DNA of 64,000 nucleotides from a virus, in the IMG/VR virus record IMGVR_UViG_3300045988_156211. One strand, 5' to 3'. Shown in pieces: positions 502-59,112 of the stretch; position 1 is the first letter of the stretch; every line of letters starts with the position of its first letter. The notes beneath the pieces were generated by a model that was not told where the DNA came from, searched no databases, and saw only the letters and a list, made by a program, of their open reading frames with translations. A program made the translations under genes and the position numbers.

Positions 502-686
502 TCTGATAACTGATTTAATAGGTTTTTGTTTTGTTTGGAGAGGTACTTTTGGATTGCTTCCTTAGTCTTCTCGGATGTACCCGGGTAGAGATATAGGATA
601 GATATTTCTCTTTCTGATAGTGTAGAGAGGTATTCTATCTTCTCCTCTTCAGTTGGGATGTTCTCTATTATTTCTCTTTGTGTCAT
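498..686 (-). CDS. hypothetical protein (62 aa)
   Basis: ATG-initiated ORF in the minus-strand array, with a 4-nt overlap with the upstream ORF. No recognisable motif. Confidence 0.45.
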   Translation of the reverse strand: MTQREIIENIPTEEEKIEYLSTLSEREISILYLYPGTSEKTKEAIQKYLSKQNKNLLNQLSE

Positions 687-919
687 AGTAGTAATACTGA
701 GCTGATGAAGAATTCTACGTAGTCGTTATCGATACCTAAGTTATGGCAAGCCTCTTCGAAATCATCATATCCTAGATCTCCAATATCCTTTAGGTCATTT
801 AGGTTATCTATTTCGTTGTTGATGTAGTCGGATGCTTGTTTGGGAGAGCAATGGCATGAATCACATACCAGGTTTATTATCTTGTCTCTATCGTCAGAAG
901 TCATTTTCCTTAGTTCCAT
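683..919 (-). CDS. hypothetical acidic protein (78 aa)
   Basis: ATG-initiated ORF. Contains a CDSCHC segment and acidic composition. No family recognised. Confidence 0.45.
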   Translation of the reverse strand: MELRKMTSDDRDKIINLVCDSCHCSPKQASDYINNEIDNLNDLKDIGDLGYDDFEEACHNLGIDNDYVEFFISSVLLL

Positions 920-1139
920 GGTTATTCCTTTTTAGTGTTACTGTAAATATGTTTCTATTTCGTGTGCTATTAATTATTACGTGTACTCTGCTAGAGTTTG
1001 TTATGTACTTTAAGAAATAACTCATTACATATCTTATAAGATATAATCTAGAATGAGTTCTCATACTAGGTAACTTTACGAGGTAGTTAAAGGATTTGTT
1101 GTATACCTTAACTACCTCGATATCGTATTTTATGATCAT
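894..1139 (-). CDS. hypothetical basic protein (81 aa)
   Basis: The ATG shares 1 nt with the TAA of the upstream gene (TAATG), a junction type seen repeatedly in this window. No motif recognised. Confidence 0.35.
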   Translation of the reverse strand: MIIKYDIEVVKVYNKSFNYLVKLPSMRTHSRLYLIRYVMSYFLKYITNSSRVHVIINSTRNRNIFTVTLKRNNHGTKENDF

Positions 1140-2146
1140 TACTGTAGGAAAATCTTCTTGAATCTGTAATTGATCAGTTGAGCAACTGCAATATATTCCA
1201 TGTAGGTATCACTAGTGATAGGGTTAGGTTCTTGATTTACCCATTGTAAATATTCACTAAATGTACCTTCGAATTCTATGGCATGTAAGGGAAATAGCTT
1301 TTGAACTGATACCTTTACAAAATCCTCGTTTTTAAGAGTTTTTGCGAAATCCTCAGGATTTACATCTGTTGGGTTAGGTATAGCCTTATGATAAGCCAAT
1401 ATATCGTATTTGTCAGCGACATTATGAACCAGGATAAAATCCTTGAAACTGTTTATCCGGGCATGGTCATTTAAGGCTAATCCTGTAATCCTTATATTCT
1501 TATCTTCATATGAAGTACTTATAATGACTGATTTACCCTCTATACGAGAATCACCACATACTACAACATCAGTACCTATAACTGAATCATCATATATTTC
1601 TGAATGATCCATTATTAAGGCATTATCCTTTATAACGGCATCAAATACTTCGGCATAGTCTCTTATATGAGCTTTTCCACTTACCTTAGCATGTCCATGT
1701 ACATTAGCCGAATCCCTTACAACGGCCAAATCAAATACCTGAGCATTACCTCCAACAACCGCGGAATTCATTATTCTAGAAAAACCTGATACTTGAGCAT
1801 TGTCCATTACCATAGCATCATCTATAATTCTAGCAGAACTAAATACTATGGCTTCGTCAAATACCTTGCCACGGTTCGCTATCCAGGCATTGTCTTTTAC
1901 AGTAGCATCATCATTTACAATAGCATCTCCCACTACCCGGGCATTGCCCATTACCTTAGCATTACCTCCTACCCAACATTCATTGACTTGAGATAGGTTA
2001 TCATAGTTTTCTATGTATCCTCCCATATCTCCGGCTTTAACTCTTGTACTGACATCCCTTAAAGCTTGGATTCTGTATAGGGTTTTACCCTCGTATTCAA
2101 TTTTATGTTCGTCGTCCCTAATAATTTGATATTTTCGAGTTTCCAT
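1139..2146 (-). CDS. left-handed beta-helix (hexapeptide-repeat) protein, function unknown
   Basis: About 25 consecutive hexapeptide units run from VGGNAK/VMGNAR/VVGDAI through VCGDSR/IEGKSV. A non-repetitive C-terminal domain of about 110 aa follows. Confidence 0.7.
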   Translation of the reverse strand: METRKYQIIRDDEHKIEYEGKTLYRIQALRDVSTRVKAGDMGGYIENYDNLSQVNECWVGGNAKVMGNARVVGDAIVNDDATVKDNAWIANRGKVFDEAIVFSSARIIDDAMVMDNAQVSGFSRIMNSAVVGGNAQVFDLAVVRDSANVHGHAKVSGKAHIRDYAEVFDAVIKDNALIMDHSEIYDDSVIGTDVVVCGDSRIEGKSVIISTSYEDKNIRITGLALNDHARINSFKDFILVHNVADKYDILAYHKAIPNPTDVNPEDFAKTLKNEDFVKVSVQKLFPLHAIEFEGTFSEYLQWVNQEPNPITSDTYMEYIAVAQLINYRFKKIFLQ

Positions 2147-2158
2147 GTTTGTATGTAT

Positions 2159-2919: not shown

Positions 2920-3309
2920 TCATCGTATAACCAATTCGTCAACTGGCACTTTTAATATACTAGATATTTCAGATAAAAGGCCTATCCCGGGTTGTGCTCC
3001 ATTATAAGCCATTACCTGTAAACTGTTTGGGTTCTTCATATTAAGCATATTGCTTAGGCTTTTTATAGATATACCCTTAGATTTACATACTTCTCCTATC
3101 CTATTACTTATAAATCCATGTTTTTTCTTACGCATAGCCATACTTACATATTGACATGCAGATGATTTGCTTTTAAAATTCTTAAGACACCATCTCTGAC
3201 CAGTACGTATTTTTGTAGCCCATACATTAAAACTCCTAGCCTTAATCCCGGGCTTTATATCAAAATCTTCATACAATCGAAAGAATAAATATTTTTTATC
3301 TATCTTCAT
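2920..3309 (-). CDS. putative XRE-type helix-turn-helix DNA-binding protein
   Basis: The C-terminal segment IGEVCKSKGISIKSLSNMLNMKNPNSLQVMAYNGAQPGIGLLSEISSILKVPVDELV has the XRE/Cro HTH pattern. A terminator hairpin follows the gene. Confidence 0.45.
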   Translation of the reverse strand: MKIDKKYLFFRLYEDFDIKPGIKARSFNVWATKIRTGQRWCLKNFKSKSSACQYVSMAMRKKKHGFISNRIGEVCKSKGISIKSLSNMLNMKNPNSLQVMAYNGAQPGIGLLSEISSILKVPVDELVIR

Positions 3310-3338: not shown

Positions 3339-3689
3339 TTAATCTTGTCTAGAATTATCTTTTACTAATAGCTTTATAATTTCTACTTGTATTCTAAATC
3401 CCGTCTCTTGAGGAATATATAATATCGTAAGAATAAGGCTATCATTTGGTAATAGCATCTGAATAACATGATTGGGTATTACCAATATGGGTTGTGGAGC
3501 ACATCCATCCCGGGTAAAATTATCAAAGATAGCTTTTATACGGCTTTCAACTTCACTTACACCAGGTATGGCTATTCTTATAGATGTCATGGCTTGTTTT
3601 AACCCTTGAGTAAGAGCTTCATATAACCAAGTATTATCCACTAAATCATTTTTAGCCATCCTTACTATATTTATGCTAACATTTTCCAT
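3339..3689 (-). CDS. hypothetical protein (116 aa)
   Basis: ATG ORF in the minus-strand array. No motif recognised. Confidence 0.5.
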   Translation of the reverse strand: MENVSINIVRMAKNDLVDNTWLYEALTQGLKQAMTSIRIAIPGVSEVESRIKAIFDNFTRDGCAPQPILVIPNHVIQMLLPNDSLILTILYIPQETGFRIQVEIIKLLVKDNSRQD

Positions 3690-4599: not shown

Positions 4600-4894
4600 A
4601 CTTGTAAGATTTTCTAATATCGTTTTTTTCAATATAGTCTATCTTCTCTAAATTTGCCCATAAGTATAAATCAACTCCCTTATAAAAGTGATCAGAGTAA
4701 ATAAAAGCTTCAAACCTATTATTAGGGTATGATATTAAGGTAAATGGTATATCATGTACCAAATCCCGGGTAAATATGAATTCACCTTCTATAGATTTAG
4801 GGATTTCCTGAAGGAAATCCCTAATCCCAATAACCCTAAATTTATTACCATGTAGATCTAGGATTACATCACCCGTATTATTTTTGTCTCGCAT
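4583..4894 (-). CDS. hypothetical protein (103 aa)
   Basis: ATG ORF in the array. No motif recognised. Confidence 0.5.
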   Translation of the reverse strand: MRDKNNTGDVILDLHGNKFRVIGIRDFLQEIPKSIEGEFIFTRDLVHDIPFTLISYPNNRFEAFIYSDHFYKGVDLYLWANLEKIDYIEKNDIRKSYKYVRKS

Positions 4895-7507: not shown

Positions 7508-8362
7508 TTATCTCTTTACCACATCATTGTAAATTTTCTCTTTTACATTATTCGGGAATACCACATCCCTATACCATCTGAGGAAGAACTTAGAAGGTTT
7601 CTTTTCTGGGTTCATAAGTAATTGCCTTTGTTCTGTAGAGAACTTTATTCTTTCTTCCTCTAACATCCAAGCAGGCATTTTAGTGAACTCAACCGTATTA
7701 AAGTTCAATACCTTCTTACCCACATCTATTTTTAATGGGTGTTTTCTTTCCTTATATAAATATGGTACTACCTTACGAGATGGTCCATTGATAATAGAGA
7801 ACCCAAAGATTATCATAGGATCAAACTTATCAGATTTAGGATCCTTAGCTCTCTTTATACATCTTACCATCCATGATAGAGAATTCAGATACTGATGATT
7901 TTGATTGGGTTCTCCAATATCCCGGGTATGAAAAGGAAAATCCTTAAAGTGATATAACAGGTCCTCAGTTAGGATAAATACAAATCCCAGGTCTCTCAAG
8001 TATTTAATTATACTATCCTGATTTTCTCCATCCTTAACTTTATTCTCTACATTCAACAGAATATCCTCCCTGGGTGATTCTATTGGTGTTGAAGCATTGG
8101 TTGAGGGTCTTCCTCTACCTACTGAAGGCTCTTTTAAGGGTAGGTTTCCTACTAATTGATCTAAGTAACTTTTGAAAGATTCAATATCAGATTTATTAGT
8201 AAGAGTAACTTCTACTCTTATAGGACCTTTATGCTGTATTTTTGGACCTGAATTTAATTCGGTATAAGCATCTACCAACCTATCCTGAATATAACTACCA
8301 TTTTCAGTTAAGGTGGTTATTCTCATCTTGGGTTTATATTTCTTTTCTTCTGTAGGTTCCAT
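7508..8362 (-). CDS. hypothetical protein (284 aa)
   Basis: ATG ORF, preceded by a terminator hairpin at 8384..8418. No motif recognised. Confidence 0.55.
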   Translation of the reverse strand: MEPTEEKKYKPKMRITTLTENGSYIQDRLVDAYTELNSGPKIQHKGPIRVEVTLTNKSDIESFKSYLDQLVGNLPLKEPSVGRGRPSTNASTPIESPREDILLNVENKVKDGENQDSIIKYLRDLGFVFILTEDLLYHFKDFPFHTRDIGEPNQNHQYLNSLSWMVRCIKRAKDPKSDKFDPMIIFGFSIINGPSRKVVPYLYKERKHPLKIDVGKKVLNFNTVEFTKMPAWMLEEERIKFSTEQRQLLMNPEKKPSKFFLRWYRDVVFPNNVKEKIYNDVVKR

Positions 8363-11131: not shown

Positions 11132-11739
11132 ATTGAAATGAATTTTGAATTTGAATAGTTTATCTTAGTATATCCCGGGATACCTATAAGTCCAAAACTT
11201 GAATGTATATCGGGAATGTTTCTTTTCAATAGATAATAGTTATTGGTATATTTTCTAGGAAAGATGTACCAAGTACCATTTATTGGCCTATTAGAAGTTA
11301 TATAGCAATATTTATTTGCCTTCTTTTCATACTTATGGTAATTATCTCGGGTTAGAGGTATATACCCTCTGTAAATAAACTGCTTTTCTAGATATTTATC
11401 CTTAATATAAGGAATAGAATTACCATTTAGTTTAGTAAATTCCTCTAGAAACTTATTATACGATCCATTTTTTACATATTTAGTTGCCCTCCTTATTGAT
11501 TTTTTTATCGTCCATTTCTTTCTTTTTAACAGGTGTATAGTTAGATCCCCTATAATCGACGACTTTACCATGTCTGTAGAAGACAATATCTTCTTCTCTG
11601 ATTCCGAGAGATTTGCATACCTCCGGTAAGATAAGTTTATACGCCTTATATCGGTTAGACTGTAAATATCTAGGACTGAAGCCAAGTCTATATCCGTAAT
11701 ACTTTCGTATGAGTTCTTGATTGAATTTCTTCTTGCCAT
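11122..11739 (-). CDS. hypothetical protein, downstream member of an overlapping ORF pair (possible frameshift partner)
   Basis: The 205-aa ORF overlaps the upstream ORF by 260 nt. Its only Met codons are at residues 1 and 56, both inside the overlap. Confidence 0.35.
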   Translation of the reverse strand: MARRNSIKNSYESITDIDLASVLDIYSLTDIRRINLSYRRYANLSESEKKILSSTDMVKSSIIGDLTIHLLKRKKWTIKKSIRRATKYVKNGSYNKFLEEFTKLNGNSIPYIKDKYLEKQFIYRGYIPLTRDNYHKYEKKANKYCYITSNRPINGTWYIFPRKYTNNYYLLKRNIPDIHSSFGLIGIPGYTKINYSNSKFISIWN

Positions 11740-12142: not shown

Positions 12143-12704
12143 TTTTCATATCCCTTTTAGCTTTCCTATACCAAAGGTTTATAGATTTATCATTAGCATC
12201 GGGAAATTTTTTCTTTACCCTACGTAATACTCTCTCAATGCTAAATCCCTTATGAACCAATTCAAAGGTATAGGATTTCTTAGTACCTTTGATAAGGTTG
12301 AATTCATCCCTTTCCTTTGGAGGTTTCTTTTCTCGGGGTTTCTTTATCCCGGGAACTCTTTTGGATTTTCTTACTCCGTTTTCGTCTTCTTCTCCAAGAA
12401 ACCCAAGCCTTAACCTTGAACTCCTTAAAGGATCATCCTTACTATATCCCAGGGATTCCAACTGTTTATCCATCCAATCATCATACTGATTGATGAGATC
12501 TTTGTTGGGTTTTTCCGTGGAATTGTTTATATAGGATATTAAACCAAATACTCCAGATTTGCAAGCATCCGGGAAAGGCATACCTAAAATAACAGCTTTA
12601 CGTTTCAAATCCTTATAAGTAAGGTTTCTACCGGATGCTGTCAATAGATTAGCCTTCTCCTTTGAAGCGAGTTTTGGTTTTAGTTTTTTCTTACTTATTG
12701 CCAT
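12135..12704 (-). CDS. hypothetical basic protein (189 aa)
   Basis: ATG ORF in the array. No motif recognised. Confidence 0.5.
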   Translation of the reverse strand: MAISKKKLKPKLASKEKANLLTASGRNLTYKDLKRKAVILGMPFPDACKSGVFGLISYINNSTEKPNKDLINQYDDWMDKQLESLGYSKDDPLRSSRLRLGFLGEEDENGVRKSKRVPGIKKPREKKPPKERDEFNLIKGTKKSYTFELVHKGFSIERVLRRVKKKFPDANDKSINLWYRKAKRDMKNG

Positions 12705-13191: not shown

Positions 13192-14163
13192 TTAAAATAG
13201 CTCAGGTTTAGCACGTTCTACACCGGGTATGTGAGTTCTAGAAGATTTTTTAGGTTTGTGATATTTATTAGTGAAAGCATTATTTAACTGCTTCACATTG
13301 AAGTCTATATTATTTACCTCATTATAATTTATGGCTTGGGAAGTTATTAACCTATATTCTGGCCAAAATTTCTGACCCAATTTTATACCCGAAGTTTTGA
13401 GATAATACTTAGATACCATAAATCCAAAAGTATCTGCCTCATCCCGGGTATTAAATACATATAAATAATGCCTTGACATTTCATCTACTACTTCTTTTAA
13501 AGGTCTTATTGGCATTAATATATATTGAAACCTTTTATTAGATTTAAACAATGCTACCCAATACTTAGGTTTAGAGGGTTTAACCTTATACCAGTACTTT
13601 TCTTTAATTTTATCTATAACTAGTTCAGGAACTTTCTTAATGAGATACTTGATATATATTTTGTCCTTCTTATTTAACCTCCTTTTAAATGCAGACGGTT
13701 GCTGTATGATAGATGGTAATATTCTGAAATTATTCCATCTATCGAATTCCATGATTAGCTTATGAGTATCTCTATCCCATGATATACTGGATAGCTTTAG
13801 ATATTCCATATTACGGATAATACATCTGTTGGTTACCTTGGGTAATACCATAGATGAATTACCCGTATATTCTCTAGCTTGTACCCGGGAATATCTTTTC
13901 TCTATTAATGCCTCAATATAATCTTTAAATTGTTGTTCACATGGTCCATCTGGCCTAAATATAGAAGGATGTATTTCAAAGAAATTACTAAATAACTTAA
14001 AAAAGTACTCCGATCTATCTCTTACTTCTAAATACTTATAATGAGATAATTTTAACATTTCTCCCACTTCCCAGGAAGATTTATTCTCGGATAACCTTAA
14101 AAATAAGGATTGCCTCTCTATCAAAGTTAGGCAATCCCAAGCTTTACTCTGATGTGCTTCCAT
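13192..14163 (-). CDS. putative transcription regulator with sigma-70 region-4/LuxR-like HTH at the N-terminus
   Basis: LTLIERQSLFLRLSENKSSWEVGEMLKLSHYKYLEVRDRS resembles the region-4 HTH pattern L(T/S).RE..v..L....g.s..EIa..L.iS...V. The remaining 270 aa are unassigned. Confidence 0.35.
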   Translation of the reverse strand: MEAHQSKAWDCLTLIERQSLFLRLSENKSSWEVGEMLKLSHYKYLEVRDRSEYFFKLFSNFFEIHPSIFRPDGPCEQQFKDYIEALIEKRYSRVQAREYTGNSSMVLPKVTNRCIIRNMEYLKLSSISWDRDTHKLIMEFDRWNNFRILPSIIQQPSAFKRRLNKKDKIYIKYLIKKVPELVIDKIKEKYWYKVKPSKPKYWVALFKSNKRFQYILMPIRPLKEVVDEMSRHYLYVFNTRDEADTFGFMVSKYYLKTSGIKLGQKFWPEYRLITSQAINYNEVNNIDFNVKQLNNAFTNKYHKPKKSSRTHIPGVERAKPELF

Positions 14164-26822: not shown

Positions 26823-26823
26823 A

Positions 26824-42282: not shown

Positions 42283-43995
42283 CTATACTGTTTCGGTTAT
42301 ATTACAAGAAAGATTTTTCTCATAGAACAAAGCTACATTATAATTAGAAGCCTCATAGTCAGAATTAATGGCTCCCAAATAGATAGAATATTTGTATCCC
42401 ATCTGTTGAGAATTTCCATTTACATTGATATAGAATTCATTATCATTCTTTGTATCCTTAATGAGTACATTACTACTCATATTTAGTTTATCTGAAATGA
42501 ATCCTCCACTTTCAGAATAAATATAATAGGTATTAGAAGATAACACTTCGATGATATAATTCAAAGGAGTATTAGCCTTCTTAAGGTCAAAGCTGAGTAT
42601 ATCTATGGATGTACCGTATATTACTTTTGGCCATGGTGTTACATAGAACTTATTTATATGTAAGTAATCTACAGATTCAAGGTTATCTATCAGGGCATAT
42701 AAATCGGATATACGTACACTATTACCCATGAGAGTACTTACAGGAGAATAAGCATTACCTAAAGCTTCTACTATTTGACTACGGATAAAACTACCCTTGT
42801 ACCCTTTATTACCAGTAACGTCTATATCCAAATTTATGGATACTACACTAACCGATTTTACACTTAACCAAGTAGTTAAAGGAGATCTCAAAGAAATATA
42901 TTCTTTTACCTTTTGACATAATCCTTCTGAAGCTACTGGGTAACCATTATCGGAAGTAACTGCACTTATGTAGATATTCATCTTTCTACCGCAGATATAC
43001 TCTATATTAGCTTGATGTACTCCAGGGTACATTTCAGCTAGATCCTTAAAATCTTGCTTGGTTATGGCTACTTCCCGGGTATTTACACTTAAAGATATAT
43101 GCCTCTTTAAAGTATCAAAATCTTCATAATCGGAACCTCCACTAGCAGGCAATGGGTTATTTATAGTAAAGTCTTTAAGTAAGTCTTCTCCATCATCCTG
43201 AGTATTACTACTGCTACTTATATACCCAGAACCAATATTACTCTTAGACCCATGAGTATATTTATAAGTAATGGTTACATCTGAACTGTGGTCTGTAGGT
43301 ATTTTACCAAAGATGCCATCTCCAAAAACTATTATGGGTATACTATCCTGTATTACCACTTTAAAGTGATTATCTTTAGGACTTGAATTGGCGAATGAAT
43401 TAACTAATGACCATTTCTCAGAACCTATGGTCAATTCCATACTACCTTCTACATAGTATACATCACCATTCAAATCTACTGATATGATATTATCATCTGG
43501 CAGTTTACCCATATTTTCAGTGTTATACTCATACTGAAATACTGATAAATAGGACATGGTTATACCCTGGGATATCTTATATTCCTTATCGGTATACCAA
43601 GTATAACCATAAGCAGTATCTATAAACTTACTGCCAACTGGTATCACAATATCTTTATCTGCTACACCTGTAAGTATAAGATCTGCAGAAGCCGATGTTG
43701 CACCTCTTGGTGAATAATCTACTAAGGCTGCATGTTTTAAAAGTGATGTGTATTTACGAGCGGTAAGTAAAAAAGTTTCTCTACCAAGATTATCAATATA
43801 AAAATGTAATACTTCAGCTATAGCTGAAAACATGGATATTATCAGTACTAAGATGTTTCCTTCTGATAAATCAGATATCAGTGGTTTATCTGGGTTGTTT
43901 GGATCTTTTATAGTTTTTAACTTATCCAATAGCTTTTGTTTAATATCACTAAAAGATCTTTCTAATGGGGTTAACCATTTATTACTTAGTGCCAT
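42283..43995 (-). CDS. baseplate wedge protein, gpJ / T4 gp6-like
   Basis: The N-terminal region SEGNILVLIISMFSAIAEVLHFYIDNLGRETFLLTARKYTSLLKHAALVDYSPRGATSASADL fits the Baseplate_J pattern. It follows the gp25-like gene. Confidence 0.7.
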   Translation of the reverse strand: MALSNKWLTPLERSFSDIKQKLLDKLKTIKDPNNPDKPLISDLSEGNILVLIISMFSAIAEVLHFYIDNLGRETFLLTARKYTSLLKHAALVDYSPRGATSASADLILTGVADKDIVIPVGSKFIDTAYGYTWYTDKEYKISQGITMSYLSVFQYEYNTENMGKLPDDNIISVDLNGDVYYVEGSMELTIGSEKWSLVNSFANSSPKDNHFKVVIQDSIPIIVFGDGIFGKIPTDHSSDVTITYKYTHGSKSNIGSGYISSSSNTQDDGEDLLKDFTINNPLPASGGSDYEDFDTLKRHISLSVNTREVAITKQDFKDLAEMYPGVHQANIEYICGRKMNIYISAVTSDNGYPVASEGLCQKVKEYISLRSPLTTWLSVKSVSVVSINLDIDVTGNKGYKGSFIRSQIVEALGNAYSPVSTLMGNSVRISDLYALIDNLESVDYLHINKFYVTPWPKVIYGTSIDILSFDLKKANTPLNYIIEVLSSNTYYIYSESGGFISDKLNMSSNVLIKDTKNDNEFYINVNGNSQQMGYKYSIYLGAINSDYEASNYNVALFYEKNLSCNITETV

Positions 43996-45098: not shown

Positions 45099-46595
45099 TT
45101 ATCTTTTTACTAAATTTAATATAGTTAGATATCCATTACTATCTATATTATGAGTACAATCCCTGATATACCATTTACCAGACCATTTTGAACCAACATT
45201 ATAGATATTAATGTACTTATAGTTAGTTAGACCTGGTTTACCAACTACGGTTAATTCACAAGTCTTTTCTAACTCAACCTGTTTAGATAGAGCATTTTCT
45301 AAAGCTCCAAGCCTATTACTCAAGCCTGATATCTGGTTAGCTATCTGGTTCTTAAGTTCATAGTTTTCTTTAAGGATCTGTATATCTGGAGATTGATCAG
45401 CAGATCTCATGATAACATCTCCAACACTTACTTGACCTTGCTTAGTACCTTCTACAGTATATGCTTCTACTCTTAAAGCTTTCTCCTTATATGTTTTGGG
45501 AGATACTCCAGGAGCCATACCTCCAGAACTGGTTACTATAGTAGAAGCAGACCTCTTAGTAACTGTTATTGGTTTAGAAGATATTAATACTTCTCCCGGA
45601 TACAAGTAACTATTTGGATCCAACGGATCTGCTCCGGCTTTTACTGGAGATGTTCTAACTACCCTAGAAGTTTTACCTCTATTAAAGGGTTTACCTTTTA
45701 ACCTGGTTACATTGTATTTTGAATTAAACAGTTTACCATGTTTTTTCTTAAAGGATTCTAAATCTCCACCTTCATAATAAAGAGTAGCATAATCTCTAAG
45801 GAACTCTAGATATTCTTGGGGATGCTTTTTAGCATACTCTTCCATTATGTTGTTTACAGCTCTTGGTGATAAAGCATTTACGTCCAGGTTATTAGATACA
45901 TTACCCTTCTTTACATCAGATAATACCTTAAACCTTTTCTTTAAACTACCCAGATATTTTTCTTTATCTTTACTATTACCTATGTATTTTTCTGTTGGAT
46001 CTCCAGGAGCTTTACTACCATATATAGTAGCAACCCGGGTAGCATCCCTCGGAGCATAATCTCTAATCTCTAATTCATACTTACTATCAGGAGATAAGTC
46101 CTTTATCTGATTATCTATAGCATCCTTTAACCGATTGTAAGCAGAACTAACTTGATCATTGTAGGGATCTTTAGGATTTATACGATTTACTCTCATAACG
46201 GGATTACCCGAAGTACCTCCAGTATACTTAGTCTGTAAACTAAATGAAGCTCTAATAAATTCTCCATTTTCATCTTTATAGGTATAATCTGGTACATCTG
46301 AAGTATCCTCGAAATCCCTATTATGTACATAGATAATACCCTGAATAGAATCTATATACCATGGACCTCCGGGTATATTCTTAAAGATATTATTCAACTG
46401 AGAGTATACATTATTACCAGCTACCCCATTAGATGTATTAAGTATAGCCCTTAAATCATCGGGTAACTGGTCTATATCTGGAGTATCATCCAACCCATTA
46501 CTAAATAGGATTGTTCCTTTAGTGTTATCTATTATTGGTTTAGAAGCTTGTACACTTTGGAACACTGGATGATTAGCTAATTCTGTACTTAACAT
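45099..46595 (-). CDS. baseplate hub protein, gpD-like C-terminal part
   Basis: It lies between the LysM protein and the spike. The C-terminus WSGKWYIRDCTHNIDSNGYLTILNLVK resembles the conserved gpD-family end. Confidence 0.45.
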   Translation of the reverse strand: MLSTELANHPVFQSVQASKPIIDNTKGTILFSNGLDDTPDIDQLPDDLRAILNTSNGVAGNNVYSQLNNIFKNIPGGPWYIDSIQGIIYVHNRDFEDTSDVPDYTYKDENGEFIRASFSLQTKYTGGTSGNPVMRVNRINPKDPYNDQVSSAYNRLKDAIDNQIKDLSPDSKYELEIRDYAPRDATRVATIYGSKAPGDPTEKYIGNSKDKEKYLGSLKKRFKVLSDVKKGNVSNNLDVNALSPRAVNNIMEEYAKKHPQEYLEFLRDYATLYYEGGDLESFKKKHGKLFNSKYNVTRLKGKPFNRGKTSRVVRTSPVKAGADPLDPNSYLYPGEVLISSKPITVTKRSASTIVTSSGGMAPGVSPKTYKEKALRVEAYTVEGTKQGQVSVGDVIMRSADQSPDIQILKENYELKNQIANQISGLSNRLGALENALSKQVELEKTCELTVVGKPGLTNYKYINIYNVGSKWSGKWYIRDCTHNIDSNGYLTILNLVKR

Positions 46596-48439: not shown

Positions 48440-50485
48440 TTAATAAATTATACCTAATTGATCTAAGTCATAGGTTGAACCATCAGTAAGAGTTCCCACA
48501 TCTCTACCATTTATAGTTAAAGCAACTCTGGTTACTCTATCAGTCATACCCTTAGCAGCTGCTACAACGGCTTCATCTCTTTTATAGTTAGGTATGAAAT
48601 ATGGGTTATAATTCGTTTTGAAAGGATCCAATATTACATAATCCCTCATATCCCGGGTTACTGAAAGATCTTTATTGGTACTAGTGTTACCAGCTATGCT
48701 TGATAACAGGTCTATTATCTCGGGCATAAAAGTAACCAAAGTAGCTACTCCCCAACCCCAACCGGGTAAGAATCTACCAAGCATAGCTCCTATTCCTGTA
48801 ATCTTACTCAATAGTGAACCACCAAGTTTAGTAGCGGCTTTAGTAGTTGCAGCTGCTGCAGCACCTTTACCAGCAGCTGTTGCAGCGGCTTTAGTAGCTG
48901 ATGTTGCAGCTGATGATGTACTACCTGACATGGCTTTGCCCAATATTAAAGCTGATAAGGTGTTATCTAATCCAGACATGGATGATTTACCATTCTTACC
49001 TTTCCTTTGAACCCATAAAGCTCCAGTAGCTGGGTTGATACCCATCTTAGTTATAAGACCAGAATTAAGTCCAACTAGTATACCCATTAATCTGGTGATA
49101 TTACTTAGTTTGGCTTCTGTAGAAGTTAAGGCAGCATTTACTGAGGTTACTCCTGCTTTTAATGCAGTAGTACTACCTGCAGCAGTTTTAAACCCAAGAC
49201 TTATCATCTTTATATTCATAACTGCCATCTTTACACCATTTACTACTAATCCCAGGGCTGATACTATACCTAAAAATTCTACAGTCTTTTTACCTACAGG
49301 AGTTTGTATAAAATCCTGAACTGTATCTATTATCTTAGTAAGACCTTGTACTAAAGGTGTAAATACAGTAAGTACTTCTCCTAAACTAACTCTTAAGTTC
49401 TCCCAGCTTGATTCTAGCATTGATAATCTACCAGCGGGAGTTTCATTGAATTCTTTTATAGTGTTGTCTACTCTACCCTGGTTTTCATCATATGTACCCA
49501 TAATCCTAGCATAAGCATTACTGTTAGCCATATCTCTAAGCATAGTAGCTACAGCTCTAGAACCACGAACCTGGAATATCTCATTCCATAACTTTATTTT
49601 ATCTTTATCGGTTACTCCATCGAAAGCCTTATTTAAGGTTTGGAATATAGTCTGTAAATCTTTAAGTCTACCTTGAGCATCAAAGAAATCTTTCTGATCC
49701 AATCCTAAAGCCTTCAATCCCATGTAACCTTTCTTCCTAGCTTCTGAAGCAGATAATGATAGGTATCTGATCATGTTGCCTAAAGCAACACCAGCCATTG
49801 AACCCTGGATACCAGAGTTACCCATTACACCGATAGCTGCAGCCATCTCTCTAAGAGATATACCTGCATTTGCAGCATCTCCCGCAGCATACTTAATTGA
49901 TTCGGCCAAATCAGGCAATGACATGTTAGCATTTGTTACAGCTGTATAAATATCATCTCCAACCTGTTTTACTTGATTCATAGGTATAGAGAAGGTAGAC
50001 ATAATATTGGTCATCAAGTCTGCTACTCCACCCTTACCTCCTACGGGTGTACCCAATATAGTACCCAACTTAGCAATGGTAGGGATCATGGCTTTTATGG
50101 CTTCGGTTTTATTACCAGCCATTGCCAAAAATCTTTCTGCTGATGCTATATCTGCTGAAGTAAGTGGGGTTATCTCATTGACATCTTTAGCTAATTGTAA
50201 TAATTCGTTCTGTTGACTATTGGTGGCTCCAGCTATCTTAGAAGCCATCCATACTTCTTTCTGTACTCCAGCTGAATACCTATAAGCATCAGCCATACCT
50301 CCAACAACAGATAAAGCAGCGGATGTAAGGGTTCCGCTGCTAGAGTTTATGGCTTGTTTATAAGTATTAACTTCACTCATCAATTGACGGAAGTCTCTAG
50401 ATATAATACCAGCTTGAGTAGAAAATCTATTTTGTAGAGTAATGGCTACACCAATATCTACTAAACTTGATCCAGGATTAAACAT
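48440..50485 (-). CDS. tail tape measure protein
   Basis: The 681-aa protein is helical and Ala/Gly-rich with hydrophobic stretches. It lies directly downstream of the frameshifted chaperone pair and upstream of the baseplate genes. Confidence 0.8.
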   Translation of the reverse strand: MFNPGSSLVDIGVAITLQNRFSTQAGIISRDFRQLMSEVNTYKQAINSSSGTLTSAALSVVGGMADAYRYSAGVQKEVWMASKIAGATNSQQNELLQLAKDVNEITPLTSADIASAERFLAMAGNKTEAIKAMIPTIAKLGTILGTPVGGKGGVADLMTNIMSTFSIPMNQVKQVGDDIYTAVTNANMSLPDLAESIKYAAGDAANAGISLREMAAAIGVMGNSGIQGSMAGVALGNMIRYLSLSASEARKKGYMGLKALGLDQKDFFDAQGRLKDLQTIFQTLNKAFDGVTDKDKIKLWNEIFQVRGSRAVATMLRDMANSNAYARIMGTYDENQGRVDNTIKEFNETPAGRLSMLESSWENLRVSLGEVLTVFTPLVQGLTKIIDTVQDFIQTPVGKKTVEFLGIVSALGLVVNGVKMAVMNIKMISLGFKTAAGSTTALKAGVTSVNAALTSTEAKLSNITRLMGILVGLNSGLITKMGINPATGALWVQRKGKNGKSSMSGLDNTLSALILGKAMSGSTSSAATSATKAAATAAGKGAAAAATTKAATKLGGSLLSKITGIGAMLGRFLPGWGWGVATLVTFMPEIIDLLSSIAGNTSTNKDLSVTRDMRDYVILDPFKTNYNPYFIPNYKRDEAVVAAAKGMTDRVTRVALTINGRDVGTLTDGSTYDLDQLGIIY

Positions 50486-51433
50486 GATTATTAGAGGTAT
50501 TAATTTTTTTCTTTAAATCTTTTAAGGCTCCGATATAAGCTTCAGCTTCATCCAAAAAGTACTTCCTTACTCTGTAGGGAAGTACTAAAAAGGTGAGATA
50601 ATCTAACCTTATCTCACCTCTTACTAATTTAATAAATTGAGCTGAAAGATCTAATCGGAGAGGCAAAAAAAACTTGGAACTCCCATGATACCAACTATAC
50701 CCTTTTCTGATGGGTTATTTGGATTCTCTACTTCTATATTTGAAGTAAATACGGGATCTATAGCCGATACAAAATCTCTTATCTCCTTCATATCTCTTAC
50801 TGAGAAGCATGAGAAATTGGTTACTCTCTCGTATTTACCATTTACGTTCAACTTAAGGTTCTTTGCAATAAGCTCTGAATTTCTGGTTCTCTTAGATTCA
50901 GGCAGATTTATGATGTATCTTTCACTTTCACCATTAAGTAAATCTATGGTTAACAGTTTACCTGAAGAAAGCGAAAACTCTATGTCTTTAGTTTTTATAT
51001 GACCTTCACTATCACAATCTCCCGGGTAGTAAGGTAAAGCAAAAGGTTTACTATCAAGTTCTTCCTCAGAAGGAGCTTTGCTATAGTCTTCAAAAACTAA
51101 CTCATTAAGATCTTGTTCAAACCCATAACTGGTACCATCATTGAATGTATAGTCAAATTCTACGGTATCACCCATAGAGAACATCCTATTTTTAATAAGG
51201 ATATAATTTCTATCCAAAGCCGGAATAGCTCTTGATTGTTCTACGGTTAACTTACCTGATTTAGTAAAATCAGTAGATACTACTATGGCAGCTATGAATT
51301 TAGCCAAATTGGTTAAATCCTTACTATCTACAGGATTAGACAGGATATCCTCATCTGCACCGTTTTGTTCCCTTATGGTATACTTATAACCAGAGGGAGC
51401 CACTAAATCTAAAGTTCTAAGTTGAATGTCCAT
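50478..51433 (-). CDS. tail assembly chaperone, -1 frameshift-extended product (about 318 aa)
   Basis: A -1 slip on T_TTT_TTT (50666..50672) joins ...PSFF to LPLRLDLSAQF... in ORF 50478..50666. That ORF has no ATG of its own; its track start is the TTG inside the slippery run. Confidence 0.6.
50651..51433 (-). CDS. tail assembly chaperone (short, in-frame product)
   Basis: The 260-aa ORF lies between the tube and tape measure genes and ends just after a T8 slippery run. Confidence 0.7.
   Translation of the reverse strand: MDIQLRTLDLVAPSGYKYTIREQNGADEDILSNPVDSKDLTNLAKFIAAIVVSTDFTKSGKLTVEQSRAIPALDRNYILIKNRMFSMGDTVEFDYTFNDGTSYGFEQDLNELVFEDYSKAPSEEELDSKPFALPYYPGDCDSEGHIKTKDIEFSLSSGKLLTIDLLNGESERYIINLPESKRTRNSELIAKNLKLNVNGKYERVTNFSCFSVRDMKEIRDFVSAIDPVFTSNIEVENPNNPSEKGIVGIMGVPSFFCLSD
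50666..50672 (-). promoter_or_regulatory. -1 programmed ribosomal frameshift slippery heptamer T_TTT_TTT
   Basis: The minus strand reads AGT TTT TTT TGC in the zero frame of the chaperone gene. A -1 slip reads TTG CCT CTC ..., which opens the 62-codon extension ending 8 nt inside the tape measure gene. Confidence 0.6.
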
Positions 51434-52046: not shown

Positions 52047-53801
52047 TTAAGCGTTATCAGTTGAATCTATAGATACAGTACTTGAAGCTGCATCTATAGT
52101 TATTACTATAGAGATTTCTTGCATAGGCACTACATCTTTATACTTAAGTATAGCCTTGTATTTACCCTGCCTTACATCAGCTTCATTGTTTACTTCAAGA
52201 TTAGAGTAGTCAGTTGCATATTGATCACCCATCCAGGTATACTCTGACATAGCATTCTGGTCTACCAAGCTATCAAGCTTCGGTTTTACCTCTAAGTAGA
52301 TAGACTTCCATGTATCCCATATGTTAGGTTCCTCTATGTACTTCTCAAGTATTGGTCTAAGAGTTTTCTTGAGATACAAGTTAAGTCTAACTATAGACAA
52401 GAATCTTTCAGAATCCTGTTTAACCTGAGAAGTGAATAGATGCCAAAGCATAGTCTGCTTACCCATTGAACTAGTGTCCTTAATGACTATCATGTTGATA
52501 TAATTATGGGCCAGTTCATTTAAATCATCATACCTAGAAGGTGATCCATAGTTGGGACATACTGGACCTTTAGCATCGGTTATAATTCCTCGATTAGCCC
52601 CAGCGAATGACTTCCATGGACCATAGTTACTAGCCGAAGAATCACCAAGACCAAGTATGGTACCAATTACATCACAACTCTGAAGTCTTCCGGATTCATT
52701 ATAGTACTTGATACCACCTCCGAAATATGCAATATACTTAGAGTTACCTATAGTATTCATAACTTCATTTTGCCAAGCTACCATGTCATCAATTTTGGTT
52801 AAAGTCTTAGGTATCTCTATATAATAGGTGAATTCCTGCAAACTCTTTATTTCTTCGGCAATCTTAGTATGTATGTTGAGTTGATACTCCTTGTTGGTCT
52901 CTTCCTCTTCATCAAATACTCGATTGTACAATGATGAACAAGTTATCTGGTATACATCAACATAATCCTTGATGGTATCGAAAGCATTAACCCAATCATC
53001 TACTGATCCCGGGTATTCTGCATTTGGCAGTTCTTCGTAGTTAGGCTGTATAACTTGTACCTTCTCATTACCACTATTCCAATCAGTTACAGTAAGCTTA
53101 TTGGTTGACTGATCATATTTCTTTATAGAATCTATGAGCTTATCAAAGCTTACTTCATCAAGATTACCCTTACTATCTACAGGCTGGAAGTATGATGTAT
53201 TGCTTATAAAGTCATACAACATCTGATAATCTACAGTAGTAGGGTTAACTTCAGTAGAATTCTGATAAGAGAAGATGTTTCCACTTTCTACTTCGGTATT
53301 TGAGCTATCCTTAATTGAGTAAGTATAGTTTACTATACCCGAGGATTCTCTCTTTTTAAATGTTACCGTATAGGTATCATCTTTCTGTCCGTTGATCTTT
53401 ACTCCAAGCTTTAGAGTACCTAATTCACCAAAGGTTAGAAGAGTAAATGTTGGCTGACCTGCAGCACTTGCAAGTTCAGTCTCATATTCATCGGCCATCA
53501 ATACACCAGCACCGGGATCTGAGAAATTTCCTGGCTGTAGAGTTTCACTGGCACATACTCTTACTACTCGTAATTTAGAACCTAAAGCCAAAGCTTTCTT
53601 AACGTTTGAAATAGTACCATCTGGCATAACTTCATCACCATATATCCTTTGGAACTGTGGCCATGAAGTGATTATCTCCGATGGGTCATTAAACGGACCT
53701 TTAGTAGTTCTTGTTATTATACAAGAAACACCGTTTAACGGAGTACTTTCTTGAACATTGTTGTTCTCAAAAGTAAATTTAACTGAAGGTGAATTTGACA
53801 T
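52047..53801 (-). CDS. contractile tail sheath protein
   Basis: The 584-aa protein has a conserved C-domain segment GPWKSFAGANRGIITDAKG (the sheath PAG..RG motif) and is paired with the tube gene. Confidence 0.8.
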   Translation of the reverse strand: MSNSPSVKFTFENNNVQESTPLNGVSCIITRTTKGPFNDPSEIITSWPQFQRIYGDEVMPDGTISNVKKALALGSKLRVVRVCASETLQPGNFSDPGAGVLMADEYETELASAAGQPTFTLLTFGELGTLKLGVKINGQKDDTYTVTFKKRESSGIVNYTYSIKDSSNTEVESGNIFSYQNSTEVNPTTVDYQMLYDFISNTSYFQPVDSKGNLDEVSFDKLIDSIKKYDQSTNKLTVTDWNSGNEKVQVIQPNYEELPNAEYPGSVDDWVNAFDTIKDYVDVYQITCSSLYNRVFDEEEETNKEYQLNIHTKIAEEIKSLQEFTYYIEIPKTLTKIDDMVAWQNEVMNTIGNSKYIAYFGGGIKYYNESGRLQSCDVIGTILGLGDSSASNYGPWKSFAGANRGIITDAKGPVCPNYGSPSRYDDLNELAHNYINMIVIKDTSSMGKQTMLWHLFTSQVKQDSERFLSIVRLNLYLKKTLRPILEKYIEEPNIWDTWKSIYLEVKPKLDSLVDQNAMSEYTWMGDQYATDYSNLEVNNEADVRQGKYKAILKYKDVVPMQEISIVITIDAASSTVSIDSTDNA

Positions 53802-56806: not shown

Positions 56807-56833
56807 AATTCTAATGGTTTAAAGGGTTAAACA

Positions 56834-57673
56834 TTAGAAATTACATCCATTTCCACATCCATTGTTGCATCCACATCCGCAACCATTGTTATTACGCTGC
56901 TGATACAGCAGGTTAGCAAATGCCTCTGTCTGTTCTTTCTGTGAAAGCTTGAACTTCAAATCCTGGATCTGATTAAGCTGTTCATCTCTCCAGTGAGAAT
57001 TGATCATGTCCTTGAGACCCTGGTTACCCATTTCAATGGCCTTCAGGATTTCACATTTGTCCTGACCTTGCTGGTATCCAAGCTGAGAGAATCCTCTCTC
57101 CATACCAGTGTTGGTACGGTCAAAACCGAACTGCATGTTGTTGATTATATCCTTCTGTCCAAGCTGATTCTCATAGCCCATTTTAATGATAGCCTGCTGT
57201 GTCTGGCAGCAGCAGTCCTTAATAGCTGTAAGGATACCCGTATTTCCAAGGTTAACAGCATTGATTACACGTTCAGATGTCAAACCAACCCGACCAGATA
57301 CTTTATCAATACCTGCACGGACATCACAGATAGCTCCCTGCAATGAATTGAAGTCACAGTTAAGGTTTGAAGCCAACTGATTGATAGCAGCAGCATTACC
57401 TTTTACGGCGTCCATAATCAGATTGCTGTTCTGGTTGTCCTGCATCTGAGTGCGGAGTGCCTGCAACTGATTCTGAACTTCGATGTTCTGCTGACCCTGA
57501 CCATTTGCATCCCAGCCATTTCCGAAGAAACGATTAGCAAACATAAGCCATACGAGATAAACGAATGGGTTGTTCCATTCCTGGTTTGAACCATTTCTCA
57601 TGAGAGCGGCTGCAGTAAGCATATCATTACCACGGTCACCACAACATACTACTCTATCTACGTCCATATCCAT
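56834..57673 (-). CDS. Gln/Asn-rich, Cys-rich protein (279 aa), GC-rich island gene 2
   Basis: The N-terminus contains VVCCGDRGND, followed by the hydrophobic segment PFVYLVWLMFANRFFG, an internal CCC, and the C-terminal tail NNGCGCGCNNGCGNGCNF. Sampled lines give 43-50% G+C. Confidence 0.65.
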   Translation of the reverse strand: MDMDVDRVVCCGDRGNDMLTAAALMRNGSNQEWNNPFVYLVWLMFANRFFGNGWDANGQGQQNIEVQNQLQALRTQMQDNQNSNLIMDAVKGNAAAINQLASNLNCDFNSLQGAICDVRAGIDKVSGRVGLTSERVINAVNLGNTGILTAIKDCCCQTQQAIIKMGYENQLGQKDIINNMQFGFDRTNTGMERGFSQLGYQQGQDKCEILKAIEMGNQGLKDMINSHWRDEQLNQIQDLKFKLSQKEQTEAFANLLYQQRNNNGCGCGCNNGCGNGCNF

Positions 57674-57768
57674 AAAAATAAAAATTTAAAAGTTAAACAT
57701 TTAGTGAATTAAAATATAATGATCTCTCCGGAGGAAATCAATTTCTAGTTTAAGGGTATTTTAAAAAC

Positions 57769-59112
57769 CTATCTAATCTTACTCTTCAGGGTATTAACTT
57801 CGTTTCTTAACCTCTGTATCTCTAATACCAATAGAGATATATAATCTACTGATTTATATCCATCAGCATCTTCTATAACAAGATTCTTAAGTCCAACCTC
57901 CTCTAAGTCTTGAGCTATGACGCCATAAGATTTGGTTTTGTTTTTGTCGGATATATAGTTAAATTCAAAAAATTTAACCTTTTTAATTTTGTCAGTATCC
58001 TCTACTATTGTAGAGATATTCTCTTTTAGCCTTATATCTGAAGTTTGAGTTACCTTTGTTGCAGTAACTTGACCATTTGAAAGTGATACTTCATTGATCT
58101 TTAATACTCCTGAAGAAGATTCAATTATACGGGATGTATAGTCTGCAGAAGATTTATTATAATGGAAGTCAATAAATGGTGTTGCATGATATATTTCAAT
58201 ACCTTCACCCATTAATTCCAAAGGAGCATTGTTTATTCTAAAACCACCGTTAAAGGCTACTGCTCCAGTAACAGTACCACCACTCAATGGTAAATATGTC
58301 TTTCTATTGTGAGCAGAATACAAACTACTTAATTGACTTGCTTGAGTTTTTGTCATATAGCCATTTCTTGAAGAAGTGGCATCAAGCATAGTGACTTGAA
58401 TAGTTTCTACATACCCGGGATCACCAGTAGGATCATCATAGTTATGATACATTGCTACCAAAGGAGAACCGAATAAGAATCCTACCTTATTATTTTCTAC
58501 TCCTATATCATGACTTAAGGTGTTGTTAGGAGAAGTTACAGATGAAGATTTGTTGAAGTATACCTTCTTAACTATACTCTTATCACCAACTAAATTATCC
58601 AGATTTTTCTTATCCTCAGCAGACATGGCACCTGCATTGGAAGTAGTGGCATTAGGAATAACTACTTGTTCTGATGTACATTGAGAAGTATTATAATTAT
58701 TTCTAATTAAGTCTAGCCTTAAATCACCATTATATTGATTTGGCATGACCCCCAATACTGGGATATAATTTGATGTTCTAGTTCCATACTGGTCTGACCA
58801 CATCAATTTATATTTATCAAATAATGATTTATCTGAAGTAGACATCAATCCATCTTGTGAACTACTGGCCAAACCTAAATCAGTTATATCAGATTTACTA
58901 TGAGTATGATCAGCATCTGCTTTCTCATTTAATTTACTCTGTAAACTGCTTATATCAGATTTAGTAGCATAGTTAGACAGATCTTGCTTACTACCATATT
59001 TTACACCCTTAAAGAGGATTACACCTGTATCCTTAGCAAAGTATAAACCTCCTGAATGAGAAGAAGAGCTATAAGAGCCCTCCTTCCCCTCAAAGAATTT
59101 TAACAAAGCCAT
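57769..59112 (-). CDS. tail fibre/spike with C-terminal intramolecular-chaperone (peptidase S74) domain
   Basis: The C-terminus SDIRLKENI...YGVIAQDLEEV...VDYISLLVLEIQRLRNEVNTLK matches the auto-cleaving chaperone domain. It also carries G(L/A)MS..DK..LD fibre repeats. Confidence 0.8.
   Translation of the reverse strand: MALLKFFEGKEGSYSSSSHSGGLYFAKDTGVILFKGVKYGSKQDLSNYATKSDISSLQSKLNEKADADHTHSKSDITDLGLASSSQDGLMSTSDKSLFDKYKLMWSDQYGTRTSNYIPVLGVMPNQYNGDLRLDLIRNNYNTSQCTSEQVVIPNATTSNAGAMSAEDKKNLDNLVGDKSIVKKVYFNKSSSVTSPNNTLSHDIGVENNKVGFLFGSPLVAMYHNYDDPTGDPGYVETIQVTMLDATSSRNGYMTKTQASQLSSLYSAHNRKTYLPLSGGTVTGAVAFNGGFRINNAPLELMGEGIEIYHATPFIDFHYNKSSADYTSRIIESSSGVLKINEVSLSNGQVTATKVTQTSDIRLKENISTIVEDTDKIKKVKFFEFNYISDKNKTKSYGVIAQDLEEVGLKNLVIEDADGYKSVDYISLLVLEIQRLRNEVNTLKSKIR

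Follow-up and report, generated by a model that had tools for sequence, protein, structure and literature searches.

The DNA considered here, a window of 64,000 nucleotides (64 kb) from the virus record IMGVR_UViG_3300045988_156211, belongs to a phage genome of about 82.5 kb, the remainder of which was recovered from public contigs with identical proteins, and it contains the palindrome CCCGGG far more often than either its base composition or its genes would lead one to expect. The hexamer has 24 copies in the window and 31 in the full genome, seven of them in the 18.5 kb beyond the window, and this corresponds to one site per 2.7 kb (31 per 82.5 kb, or 376 per Mb). The excess is real and highly significant. 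It is the outcome of a directional force that acts at the DNA level on the exact symmetric hexamer, operates genome-wide by point substitution, is stronger in one subclade of the phage family and is opposed by decay of the central CpG. As to its nature, our preference, held tentatively and with less than even confidence, is that CCCGGG represents a phage version of the "highly iterated palindrome" (HIP) kept abundant by such a force, in which the word would be the target of a candidate methyltransferase and its density would be selected.

An exact scan of the window returned the same 24 start positions that had been listed by eye in a preliminary description of this DNA, with none missing and none added, and the same sites recur in independent assemblies from ENA, Logan, JGI and IMG/VR. 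The composition assumed in that description, with G and C each at 15–16%, was not quite accurate: on the plus strand of the window C accounts for 18.7% and G for 14.3% (33.0% GC), while about 75 of the 79 open reading frames (ORFs) lie on the minus strand. The number of CCCGGG sites expected in the window is 1.22 under an order-0 model, 1.80 under an order-1 model and 5.6 under an order-3 model, and for the full genome the 31 sites compare with 1.6 (order 0) or 2.5 (order 1). All other hexamers made up exclusively of G and C occur at most four times in the window, as exemplified by GGGCCC (0), CCGCGG (1), GCCGGC (1), CCGGGC (4) and CCGGCC (3).

When the coding context is taken into account, the excess persists. 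Synonymous shuffling inside the window genes yields 2.25±1.43 sites (maximum 7 in 1,000 runs) and shuffling of codon order 1.06±1.05, against 23 observed, and synonymous shuffling of the full-genome genes yields 2.6 against 28 (z≈16). Under this last null CCCGGG ranks first among the 4,096 hexamers, the words ranked next all overlap it, and the best other palindrome attains a z of 3.7. A dicodon Markov model trained on the phage's own genome comes closer to the observed count (19.3±4.3 against 28), as it would if codon usage, codon-pair bias or short peptides such as Pro-Gly and Thr-Arg-Asp were sufficient to produce the word, and AAGCTT and CTGCAG do appear 2–3-fold enriched under simple Markov nulls through codon effects. 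However, the self-trained model is circular, because a dicodon already holds five to six of the motif's six bases, and even so 28 sites were reached in only 8 of 300 runs; when the proteins are recoded with the codon-pair usage of relatives, the count falls to 3.6–3.9±1.8, with a maximum of 9. Taken together with the use of the word in all three codon phases, its reliance on rare codons and its presence outside genes, described below, these results effectively refute a translational or compositional artefact, to which we attach very little residual probability.

The sites of the window are distributed over the codon phases as five CCC-GGG, eleven xCC-CGG-Gxx and seven xxC-CCG-GGx, plus a doubtful one at 11174. 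The first two classes agree with the split of 5, 11 and 8 given in the preliminary description, whose third class is secure for seven members only, the remaining one being assigned to a doubtful ORF; the observation that five separate T-R-D tripeptides are all encoded as ACC-CGG-GAT was also correct. CCCGGG occupies 28 of the 173 positions compatible with the amino acid sequence (16%, against about 1.5% expected), with similar realised fractions of 10–20% in each phase, and in doing so it draws on the rarest Arg, Pro and Gly codons: CGG represents 24 of the 806 Arg codons of the window and 11 of those 24 fall inside CCCGGG, and for CCG, with 47 of 713 Pro codons, the corresponding number is 7–8 of the 47. 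The sites are not all intragenic, as had been thought, since this can be stated securely for 23 of the 24, and the site at 11174 lies in an overlapping ORF that the ENA gene caller did not call. In the full genome three of the 31 sites fall outside called genes, so that the density in non-coding DNA is at least as high as in genes. The proposal that the force acts on the DNA word and not on the protein is supported by these non-coding sites, by the codon-aware null and the null built on relatives' codon pairs, and by the synonymous and nonsynonymous gains described below.

Under the synonymous null for the full-genome genes only the complete palindrome is in excess, and its half-sites remain at the level expected from codon usage, with observed and expected numbers of 9 and 5.9 for CCCGGA, 9 and 6.8 for CCCGGT, 3 and 3.5 for ACCGGG, and 2 and 2.8 for TCCGGG. 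The additional forms that had been brought forward as signs of the same motif are correct as counts (17 occurrences of ACCGGG or TCCGGG and 13 of the 8-mer CCGGGTAT on the plus strand) but not as evidence, given that the former show no excess once codon usage is counted and the latter largely reflects overlap with the hexamer and the codon context of the coding strand. The same overlap and context account for the strand asymmetry of TACCCGG (21 against 6). Likewise, the flanks are not always A/T, as had been claimed: three sites are followed by C (CCCGGGC), a fourth is preceded by G (GCCCGGG), and A/T-rich flanks are generic for GC-rich words of this genome. A longer or asymmetric motif (TACCCGG, WWCCCGGGWW or an extended palindrome) was rejected, with half-sites at expectation, generic flanks and an extension of the arms equal to that of shuffled flanks. 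Regular spacing or clustering of CCCGGG was not found either, the coefficient of variation of the gaps being 1.00 against 0.95 for random placement (P=0.35), and the observed-to-expected ratio is 10.6 in the tail module, 14.7 in the replication module and 10.6 in the small-gene module, with a lower value of 5.7 in the small head module. The other elevated words are the neighbours of CCCGGG by transition at the central CpG, namely CCCAGG (19 against 9.8) and CCTGGG (21 against 7.7 under the codon-aware null). A small residual excess outside this CpG-decay pattern concerns the one-mismatch variant TACCCGGT, with 7 copies on the coding strand of the full genome against 1.6 expected.

The preliminary description had set this excess against the palindrome avoidance usual in phages, and the contrast is real within this very genome. 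Its 82.5 kb contain one GCGC, two CGCG, no ATGCAT and one CCTAGG, and the whole family strongly avoids restriction-type palindromes. AGGCCT and CAATTG are also low, GAGTCT is absent against 15 expected, and the trinucleotides GCG and CGC are especially depleted. CpG stands at 0.47 of expectation without a matching excess of TpG or CpA (0.95 and 0.89), and when strains of 97–98% identity are compared, the level of C/T polymorphism is about 2.7-fold higher at CpG cytosines than at the remaining ones. An attempt to read a methylated motif from context-specific C>T polymorphism in these strains was given up, as the roughly 2.7-fold increase applies to all CpGs and CCGG is not special. As regards GATC, this word is strongly avoided in most of the family (observed/expected about 0.18) and stands at expectation in the present phage and several other clades among loci L001–L168; no Dam-like methyltransferase motif was found, and the pattern suggests different hosts or restriction exposure. 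The GATC regime was rejected as a host proxy for the CCCGGG excess, the two not being coupled across clades.

Viral contigs from the human gut, about 85 kb long and numbering in the hundreds, have around 70% polymerase identity with the present phage, and this group matches what has been published on the candidate family 'Flandersviridae' (PMC8008677). The codon-aware enrichment of CCCGGG within it is as follows:

Present phage: 10.9-fold
Strains 97–98% identical: 11.5-fold
Relatives at 85% nucleotide identity: 11.5-fold
Intermediate groups (polymerase about 71%, methyltransferase 68–69% identity): 4.7–5.3-fold
Intermediate relatives (methyltransferase about 72% identity): about 3-fold
Main family: 2.2–3.1-fold
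Most divergent clades: 1.0–1.4-fold

The excess is a trait of the lineage, having grown from about 2–3-fold in the family to about 11-fold in the subclade. Orthologous alignments reveal that sites differ by point substitutions only, without indels, and that these are both synonymous and amino-acid-changing. Synonymous gains are exemplified by ACT-AGA-GAT to ACC-CGG-GAT, ACC-AGG to ACC-CGG and, in the polymerase gene, ATT-CCG-GGT to ATC-CCG-GGA, and nonsynonymous gains by GTT-GGT (Val-Gly) to CCC-GGG (Pro-Gly), AAA-AGA-AAA to TCC-CGG-GTA and the replacement of IPE by IPG. One-step differences among relatives affect each of the six positions, with transversions such as A>C among them. The CCCGGG sites of the window, with their codons, the amino acids encoded and the state noted in relatives, are:

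580..585: minus-strand codons TAC-CCG-GGT (Y-P-G); the 85% relative L089 has CAATCAGAATAC
1936..1941: GCC-CGG-GTA (A-R-V)
2986..2991: CCC-GGG (P-G)
3247..3252: CCC-GGG (P-G)
3509..3514: ACC-CGG-GAT (T-R-D)
4765..4770: ACC-CGG-GAT (T-R-D)
7921..7926: ACC-CGG-GAT (T-R-D)
11174..11179: within the 12-bp palindrome TATCCCGGGATA; probably between genes, unless the doubtful ORF that overlaps its neighbour is real
12348..12353: CCC-GGG (P-G)
13443..13448: ACC-CGG-GAT (T-R-D); main-family orthologues mostly ACT-AAA-GAT (T-K-D)
13884..13889: TCC-CGG-GTA (S-R-V); main-family orthologues mostly AAA-AGA-AAA (K-R-K)
22107..22112: ATC-CCG-GGT (I-P-G); main-family orthologues mostly ATC-CCT-GAA (I-P-E)
22895..22900: DNA polymerase I gene, ATC-CCG-GGA (I-P-G); main-family orthologues ATT-CCG-GGT, a synonymous T>C having made the site
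27101..27106: ATC-CCG-GGA (I-P-G); orthologues mostly ACC-CCA-GGT
28582..28587: CCC-GGG (P-G); orthologues GTT-GGT (V-G), a nonsynonymous creation
30284..30289: SNF2-type helicase gene, TAC-CCG-GGC (Y-P-G); 12 of 66 orthologues have the word one base out of register (TAT-CCC-GGG)
30918..30923: SNF2-type helicase gene, ACC-CGG-GTA (T-R-V); orthologues ACC-AGA-ATT or ACC-CGA-GTT
32138..32143: GCC-CGG-GAA (A-R-E); an old site, CCCGGG in 28 of 58 main-family orthologues
43074..43079: baseplate wedge gene, ACC-CGG-GAA (T-R-E); 85% relative ACC-AGA-GAG
46034..46039: ACC-CGG-GTT (T-R-V); 85% relative ACC-AGG-GTA
48652..48657: tape-measure gene, ACC-CGG-GAT (T-R-D); 85% relative ACT-AGA-GAT, the same peptide with three base changes
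51021..51026: TAC-CCG-GGA (Y-P-G); 85% relative TAT-CCC-GGA
53008..53013: tail sheath gene, TAC-CCG-GGA (Y-P-G); kept in 85% relatives, CCCAGG in strain L084
58414..58419: tail-fibre (Peptidase_S74) gene, CCC-GGG (P-G)

Outside the window, the small-gene region has its largest non-coding gap at full-genome 63763–64484 (about 0.7 kb), which holds two CCCGGG sites separated by 146 bp, and one of this pair forms the 12-bp palindrome TATCCCGGGATA that is also found at window positions 11174 and 22895.

Two sites are old, being carried by 48 of 71 and 28 of 58 main-family orthologues, and at least eight of the eleven comparable sites are derived in the present lineage. Turnover between relatives at 85% identity is high, with independent gains in both lineages. 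Conservation in related phages, a point raised in the preliminary description, is met with as enrichment in most of the family and as these two old sites, but not as deep positional conservation. Sites are lost mainly by transitions at the central CpG, to CCCAGG or CCTGGG, and the three recent polymorphisms are all of the CCCGGG/CCCAGG type. Among strains of 97–98% identity, 33 of 34 site-by-strain comparisons are intact, against a fraction of 0.80 for CpG-containing GC-rich control hexamers, the lineages not being independent; relatives at 85% identity have kept 5 of 12, against 0.26 for the controls, with small counts and, again, non-independent lineages. These figures point towards retention of the sites. 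Extended nucleotide conservation around the two oldest sites was sought and discarded, third-position conservation there being ordinary, and a switch of specificity between clades from CCWGG (Dcm-like) to CCSGG/CCCGGG was rejected because CCWGG is not enriched in the main family. Genes specific to the subclade were also considered as a cause and set aside; they are mostly unannotatable, and the sole matches are a zinc-ribbon protein and a T4 endonuclease V-like DNA glycosylase (Pyr_excise, PF03013). The latter gene (L085:19226-19684, minus strand) lies outside the window, about 2 kb from the methyltransferase gene described next. It is found in the enriched subclade and went undetected in those main-family loci that were examined; that it takes part in mismatch or lesion processing at CCCGGG would be pure speculation.

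About 9 kb past window coordinate 64000, beside the terminase gene, the phage encodes a candidate C5-cytosine DNA methyltransferase:

L083:555-1574, plus strand (contig ERZ27262007 k109_95502): gene of 339 codons for a protein with a PF00145 match of 44.6 bits (cut-off 22 bits)

Every family member examined encodes a PF00145 protein of 331–353 residues, with the invariant motifs SP(D/S)CG, ENLP and NSQxSRxRL and a catalytic P-x-C (P-D-C in the present phage) in place of the canonical P-C of motif IV. The AlphaFold (AF2) model has a pLDDT of 80 and a pTM of 0.85, and its best Foldseek matches are C5 methyltransferases with TM values of 0.55–0.63, namely 3g7u (from prophage Cp-933R), DNMT1, M.HaeIII and M.HhaI. 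Judged from this profile, the motifs of the IV/VI/VIII type and the predicted fold, the protein would qualify as a C5-cytosine DNA methyltransferase, the transferred group being uncertain because one structural neighbour, 8yf3, is a C5-carboxymethyltransferase. The conserved gene strengthens the earlier suggestion of a link between CCCGGG and cytosine methylation without proving it. Its neighbours encode a DUF5675 protein, a 108-residue protein, a conserved 231-residue protein and the terminase, and no nuclease domain indicative of a SmaI/XmaI-like restriction-modification system was detected among them. Targeted scans and the precomputed Pfam lists of all called phage genes likewise disclosed no other methyltransferase and, for the phage genes that they cover, no Vsr (PF03852); the host may encode one.

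Recognition of an exact symmetric hexamer implies a dimeric or otherwise symmetric sequence-specific DNA protein, and we infer that the best candidate for this role is the family's conserved orphan C5-cytosine methyltransferase. In the HIP-like reading that we tentatively prefer, CCCGGG would be, or would contain, the target of this enzyme, and the modified sites would serve as favoured tags on the phage DNA. New sites would be kept by selection on their density and not on particular positions, and decay of the modified CpG would keep eroding them, resulting in a balance between mutation and selection. Such tags might mark the phage DNA as self, protect it from a nuclease, or recruit a nuclease or a packaging or organising factor. 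A more specific version, in which the sites are positively selected epigenetic 'self' tags that are modified by the divergent C5-cytosine transferase and read by a phage or host factor, appears improbable to us. The reader might in that case spare phage DNA from a nuclease, or organise or package it, and the thymine variants CCTGGG and CCCAGG would partly mimic the 5-methyl mark.

Several observations weigh against the methyltransferase-based reading. The enzyme has no sequence or family-profile match to any solved structure in the Protein Data Bank, the 1,207 homologues in the database all come from phages and bear generic names, and no bacterial homologue was found in the genome collection or the protein database, so that its target cannot be inferred from its relatives. 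The same enzyme, at about 65–73% identity, is found in relatives with only 2–5-fold enrichment, and therefore the enzyme alone does not explain what distinguishes the subclade; a swap of the target-recognition domain was considered and rejected, as divergence is even along the protein and no obvious swap can be seen. Although the enrichment is absent from the clades with the most divergent enzyme (48–54% identity, with a different motif IV), this association is confounded with phylogeny. CpGs in the CCGG context are no more polymorphic than other CpGs (0.079 against about 0.09), the excess in conservation rests on small and phylogenetically non-independent counts, and no benefit of extra methylated sites is known. 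Finally, the random spacing and the lack of deep positional conservation or of a conserved flank fit neutral replenishment of the sites equally well.

Such neutral replenishment is the essence of the rival that we take most seriously, which we nevertheless consider rather unlikely, namely that CCCGGG is a functionless by-product of biased mismatch correction coupled to methylation. Mismatches that create or restore modified CCCGGG, in replication or recombination heteroduplexes, would here be resolved in favour of the word, either by T:G to C:G repair of the very-short-patch (VSP) type or by a methyl-directed ratchet as proposed for exactly such words (PMC4390886). Random spacing, rapid turnover and the lack of a known benefit keep the ratchet a serious rival, and the uniform enrichment over modules, the independent gains in both 85% lineages, the unconserved flanks and the restriction of recent polymorphisms to the CpG all conform to it; in addition, the phage possesses a full recombination set (UvsX/RecA, gp32, Mre11/Rad50, FEN), and heteroduplexes should thus be frequent. 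Selection on density is nonetheless favoured, because gains arise at all six positions and include transversions and amino acid changes, because the words that T:G repair should consume, CCCAGG and CCTGGG, are enriched about 2–2.7-fold, because sites appear to survive better than control words of comparable mutability, and because neither a Vsr nor a MutH-like gene is present in the Pfam annotation and scans mentioned above. The first, second and last of these findings also count against the VSP repair put forward in the preliminary description. MutH-type methyl-directed repair is not known to operate beyond some gamma-proteobacteria.

A further possibility, to which we give slightly less credence than to biased repair, is that CCCGGG is recognised by a protein unrelated to methylation, either as a Chi-like 'self' signal that stops a processive nuclease of host or phage or as a nucleation site for a coating or organising protein, its density being selected. 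One site per 2.7 kb, randomly spaced and in all frames, would suit such a reader and resembles the density of Chi in E. coli and the Chi enrichment of some phages; moreover, unusual small proteins, some strongly basic and others strongly acidic, are encoded by the genome, and the subclade and the main family probably differ in host or restriction exposure, as judged for instance from GATC avoidance. Known Chi sites are, however, asymmetric and biased in orientation, whereas strand-specific half-sites are at expectation here, no candidate reader was identified in the targeted scans, and the GATC regime is uncoupled from the enrichment across clades. The isolated GC-rich islands that the sites form in AT-rich DNA also bear a superficial resemblance to the GC clusters of yeast mitochondria. 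Spread of a mobile GC-rich element, whether of the GC-cluster type or similar to a miniature inverted-repeat transposable element, is refuted by the alignments, in which orthologues differ by substitutions without indels and the flanks are unrelated, and an assembly or sequencing artefact is incompatible with identical sites in the ENA, Logan, JGI and IMG/VR assemblies; we regard both as next to impossible.

The gene content and relationships of the phage provide the setting for these considerations. Its tail and baseplate genes include those for the tail sheath, the tape measure and baseplate proteins, its replication and recombination genes encode PolA, DnaB, a SNF2 helicase, gp32, a UvsX/RecA homologue, FEN, Mre11/Rad50-like proteins and a PD-(D/E)XK nuclease, and its genes for nucleotide metabolism encode a ThyA-family enzyme and two dUTPase-like proteins. 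Three groups of window features deserve separate mention:

25067-28457, minus strand, beside the polymerase gene: ThyA-family enzyme, an unannotated 312-residue protein and two unusually long dUTPase-like proteins (282 and 259 residues)
10288-10890, 8468-9076 and 6116-6649, all minus strand: one 200-residue Asp/Glu protein and two lysine-rich, histone-like basic proteins
About 57743-58896, within the tail-fibre gene 57769-59112 (Peptidase_S74 C-terminus): segment unalignable with the otherwise 97–98% identical strains L082 and L084

The first cluster could serve ordinary dTMP synthesis or a pathway of pyrimidine modification, and the idea that a cytosine-modification pathway based on these nucleotide-metabolism genes is tied to CCCGGG receives no evidence from them. 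As for the second group, the central 120 residues of the acidic protein are almost entirely Asp or Glu, a composition from which it could be a DNA mimic. Neither this protein nor the two basic ones match any family, and the main-family loci that were examined contain no homologue of them. At the tail-fibre segment strains L082 and L084 have different, shorter genes, and two GC-richer ORF blocks flank the segment, which from the alignment looks like a swapped receptor-binding module. Two insertions known from relatives have no counterpart in the present phage: an intein that interrupts the large terminase and bears homing-endonuclease signatures of the HNH/NUMOD4 kind (L177:11893-14424 and L179:11893-14442), and a presumed insertion in the GenBank relative MT121964, suggested by a polymerase match in two pieces over 3.3 kb. 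A megablast search of the window against GenBank phages gave no match. Bacteroides and Parabacteroides have been proposed from CRISPR spacers as hosts of 'Flandersviridae' (PMC8008677). A scan of a genome collection retrieved only three phage contigs (L174–L176), binned in metagenome-assembled genomes labelled Romboutsia, Clostridium and Dysosmobacter (Firmicutes); these labels probably reflect composition-based binning of low-GC phage DNA and call for caution in host assignment.

When compared with known systems, the phage word comes closest to the HIPs of cyanobacteria, where the alternate forms GGCGCC, rCCGGy and GCsGC each co-occur with a methyltransferase of matching specificity, and for which a methylation-dependent repair ratchet has been proposed (Elhai 2015, PMC4390886), HIP1 (GCGATCGC) having been argued from its conservation to persist under selection (Xu, Lawrence & Durand 2018, PMC5861425). 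In both cases a GC-rich palindrome is the most over-represented word of the genome (observed/expected about 12–20 here and about 15 or more for GGCGCC in Calothrix), is scattered over coding regions in all frames and shares its genome with the gene of an orphan C5-cytosine methyltransferase, a candidate one in the phage; variants with one mismatch are raised, sites appear somewhat more conserved than controls, on small and non-independent counts in the phage, and selection and a biased-repair ratchet are debated as causes. The differences are nevertheless considerable. The genome is an AT-rich virus of gut bacteria of about 82.5 kb and not a cyanobacterial chromosome, the density of 376 per Mb is below the 500–2500 per Mb of HIPs (PMC4390886), and no periodicity is detectable, the 10–90 kb scale of the HIP periodicity being too large for a genome of this size. 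Moreover, the raised variants are transitions at the central CpG and not at terminal positions, other palindromes are extremely avoided in the genome that shows the excess, and CCCGGG is only a putative target of the phage methyltransferase. A library search brought up no HIP-like word described from a phage, and as far as could be found this would be the first HIP-type palindrome in a phage.

Other systems share fewer features with CCCGGG. The Dcm/Vsr repair of E. coli, in work associated with Bhagwat and McClelland in 1992 and Gelfand and Koonin in 1997, reportedly raises CCWGG and lowers CTAG, and it has in common with the phage the rise of a C5-methyltransferase target palindrome by a DNA-level process independent of coding. 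In contrast to the 11–20-fold excess observed here, the VSP effect in E. coli is modest, well under 2-fold; furthermore, the T:G-derived neighbour words are depleted there and enriched in the phage, which has no detected Vsr. Chi is similarly a short GC-rich word, selected in every frame and present at kilobase-scale density, but it is asymmetric, depends on orientation and is set by the host RecBCD or AddAB, whereas in the phage only the symmetric hexamer is enriched. Restriction-site avoidance concerns the same class of Type II-like palindromes of 4–6 bp and is strongly displayed by the same genome, with a sign opposite to that of CCCGGG. Protection by the phage methyltransferase would explain a lack of avoidance, not a 10-fold excess.

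Decades after HIPs became known in cyanobacteria there is still no agreement on what they do or how they arose, and a small phage genome with 31 sites in 82.5 kb and one candidate methyltransferase offers a much simpler test bed, particularly because hundreds of sequenced relatives, ranging from no enrichment to 11-fold, help to separate selection from biased repair. If the sites did turn out to be read as self tags, a HIP-type palindrome would for the first time be explained by a function, and for the first time in a virus. More generally, the oligonucleotide landscapes of phages are shaped by positive forces on restriction-type words in addition to avoidance, which has a bearing on host prediction from k-mers and on what can be inferred about methylation systems in phages and their hosts. 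The family is one of the most common of the human gut, and any methylation-based system of identity or protection within it would bear on the dynamics between gut phages and their hosts.

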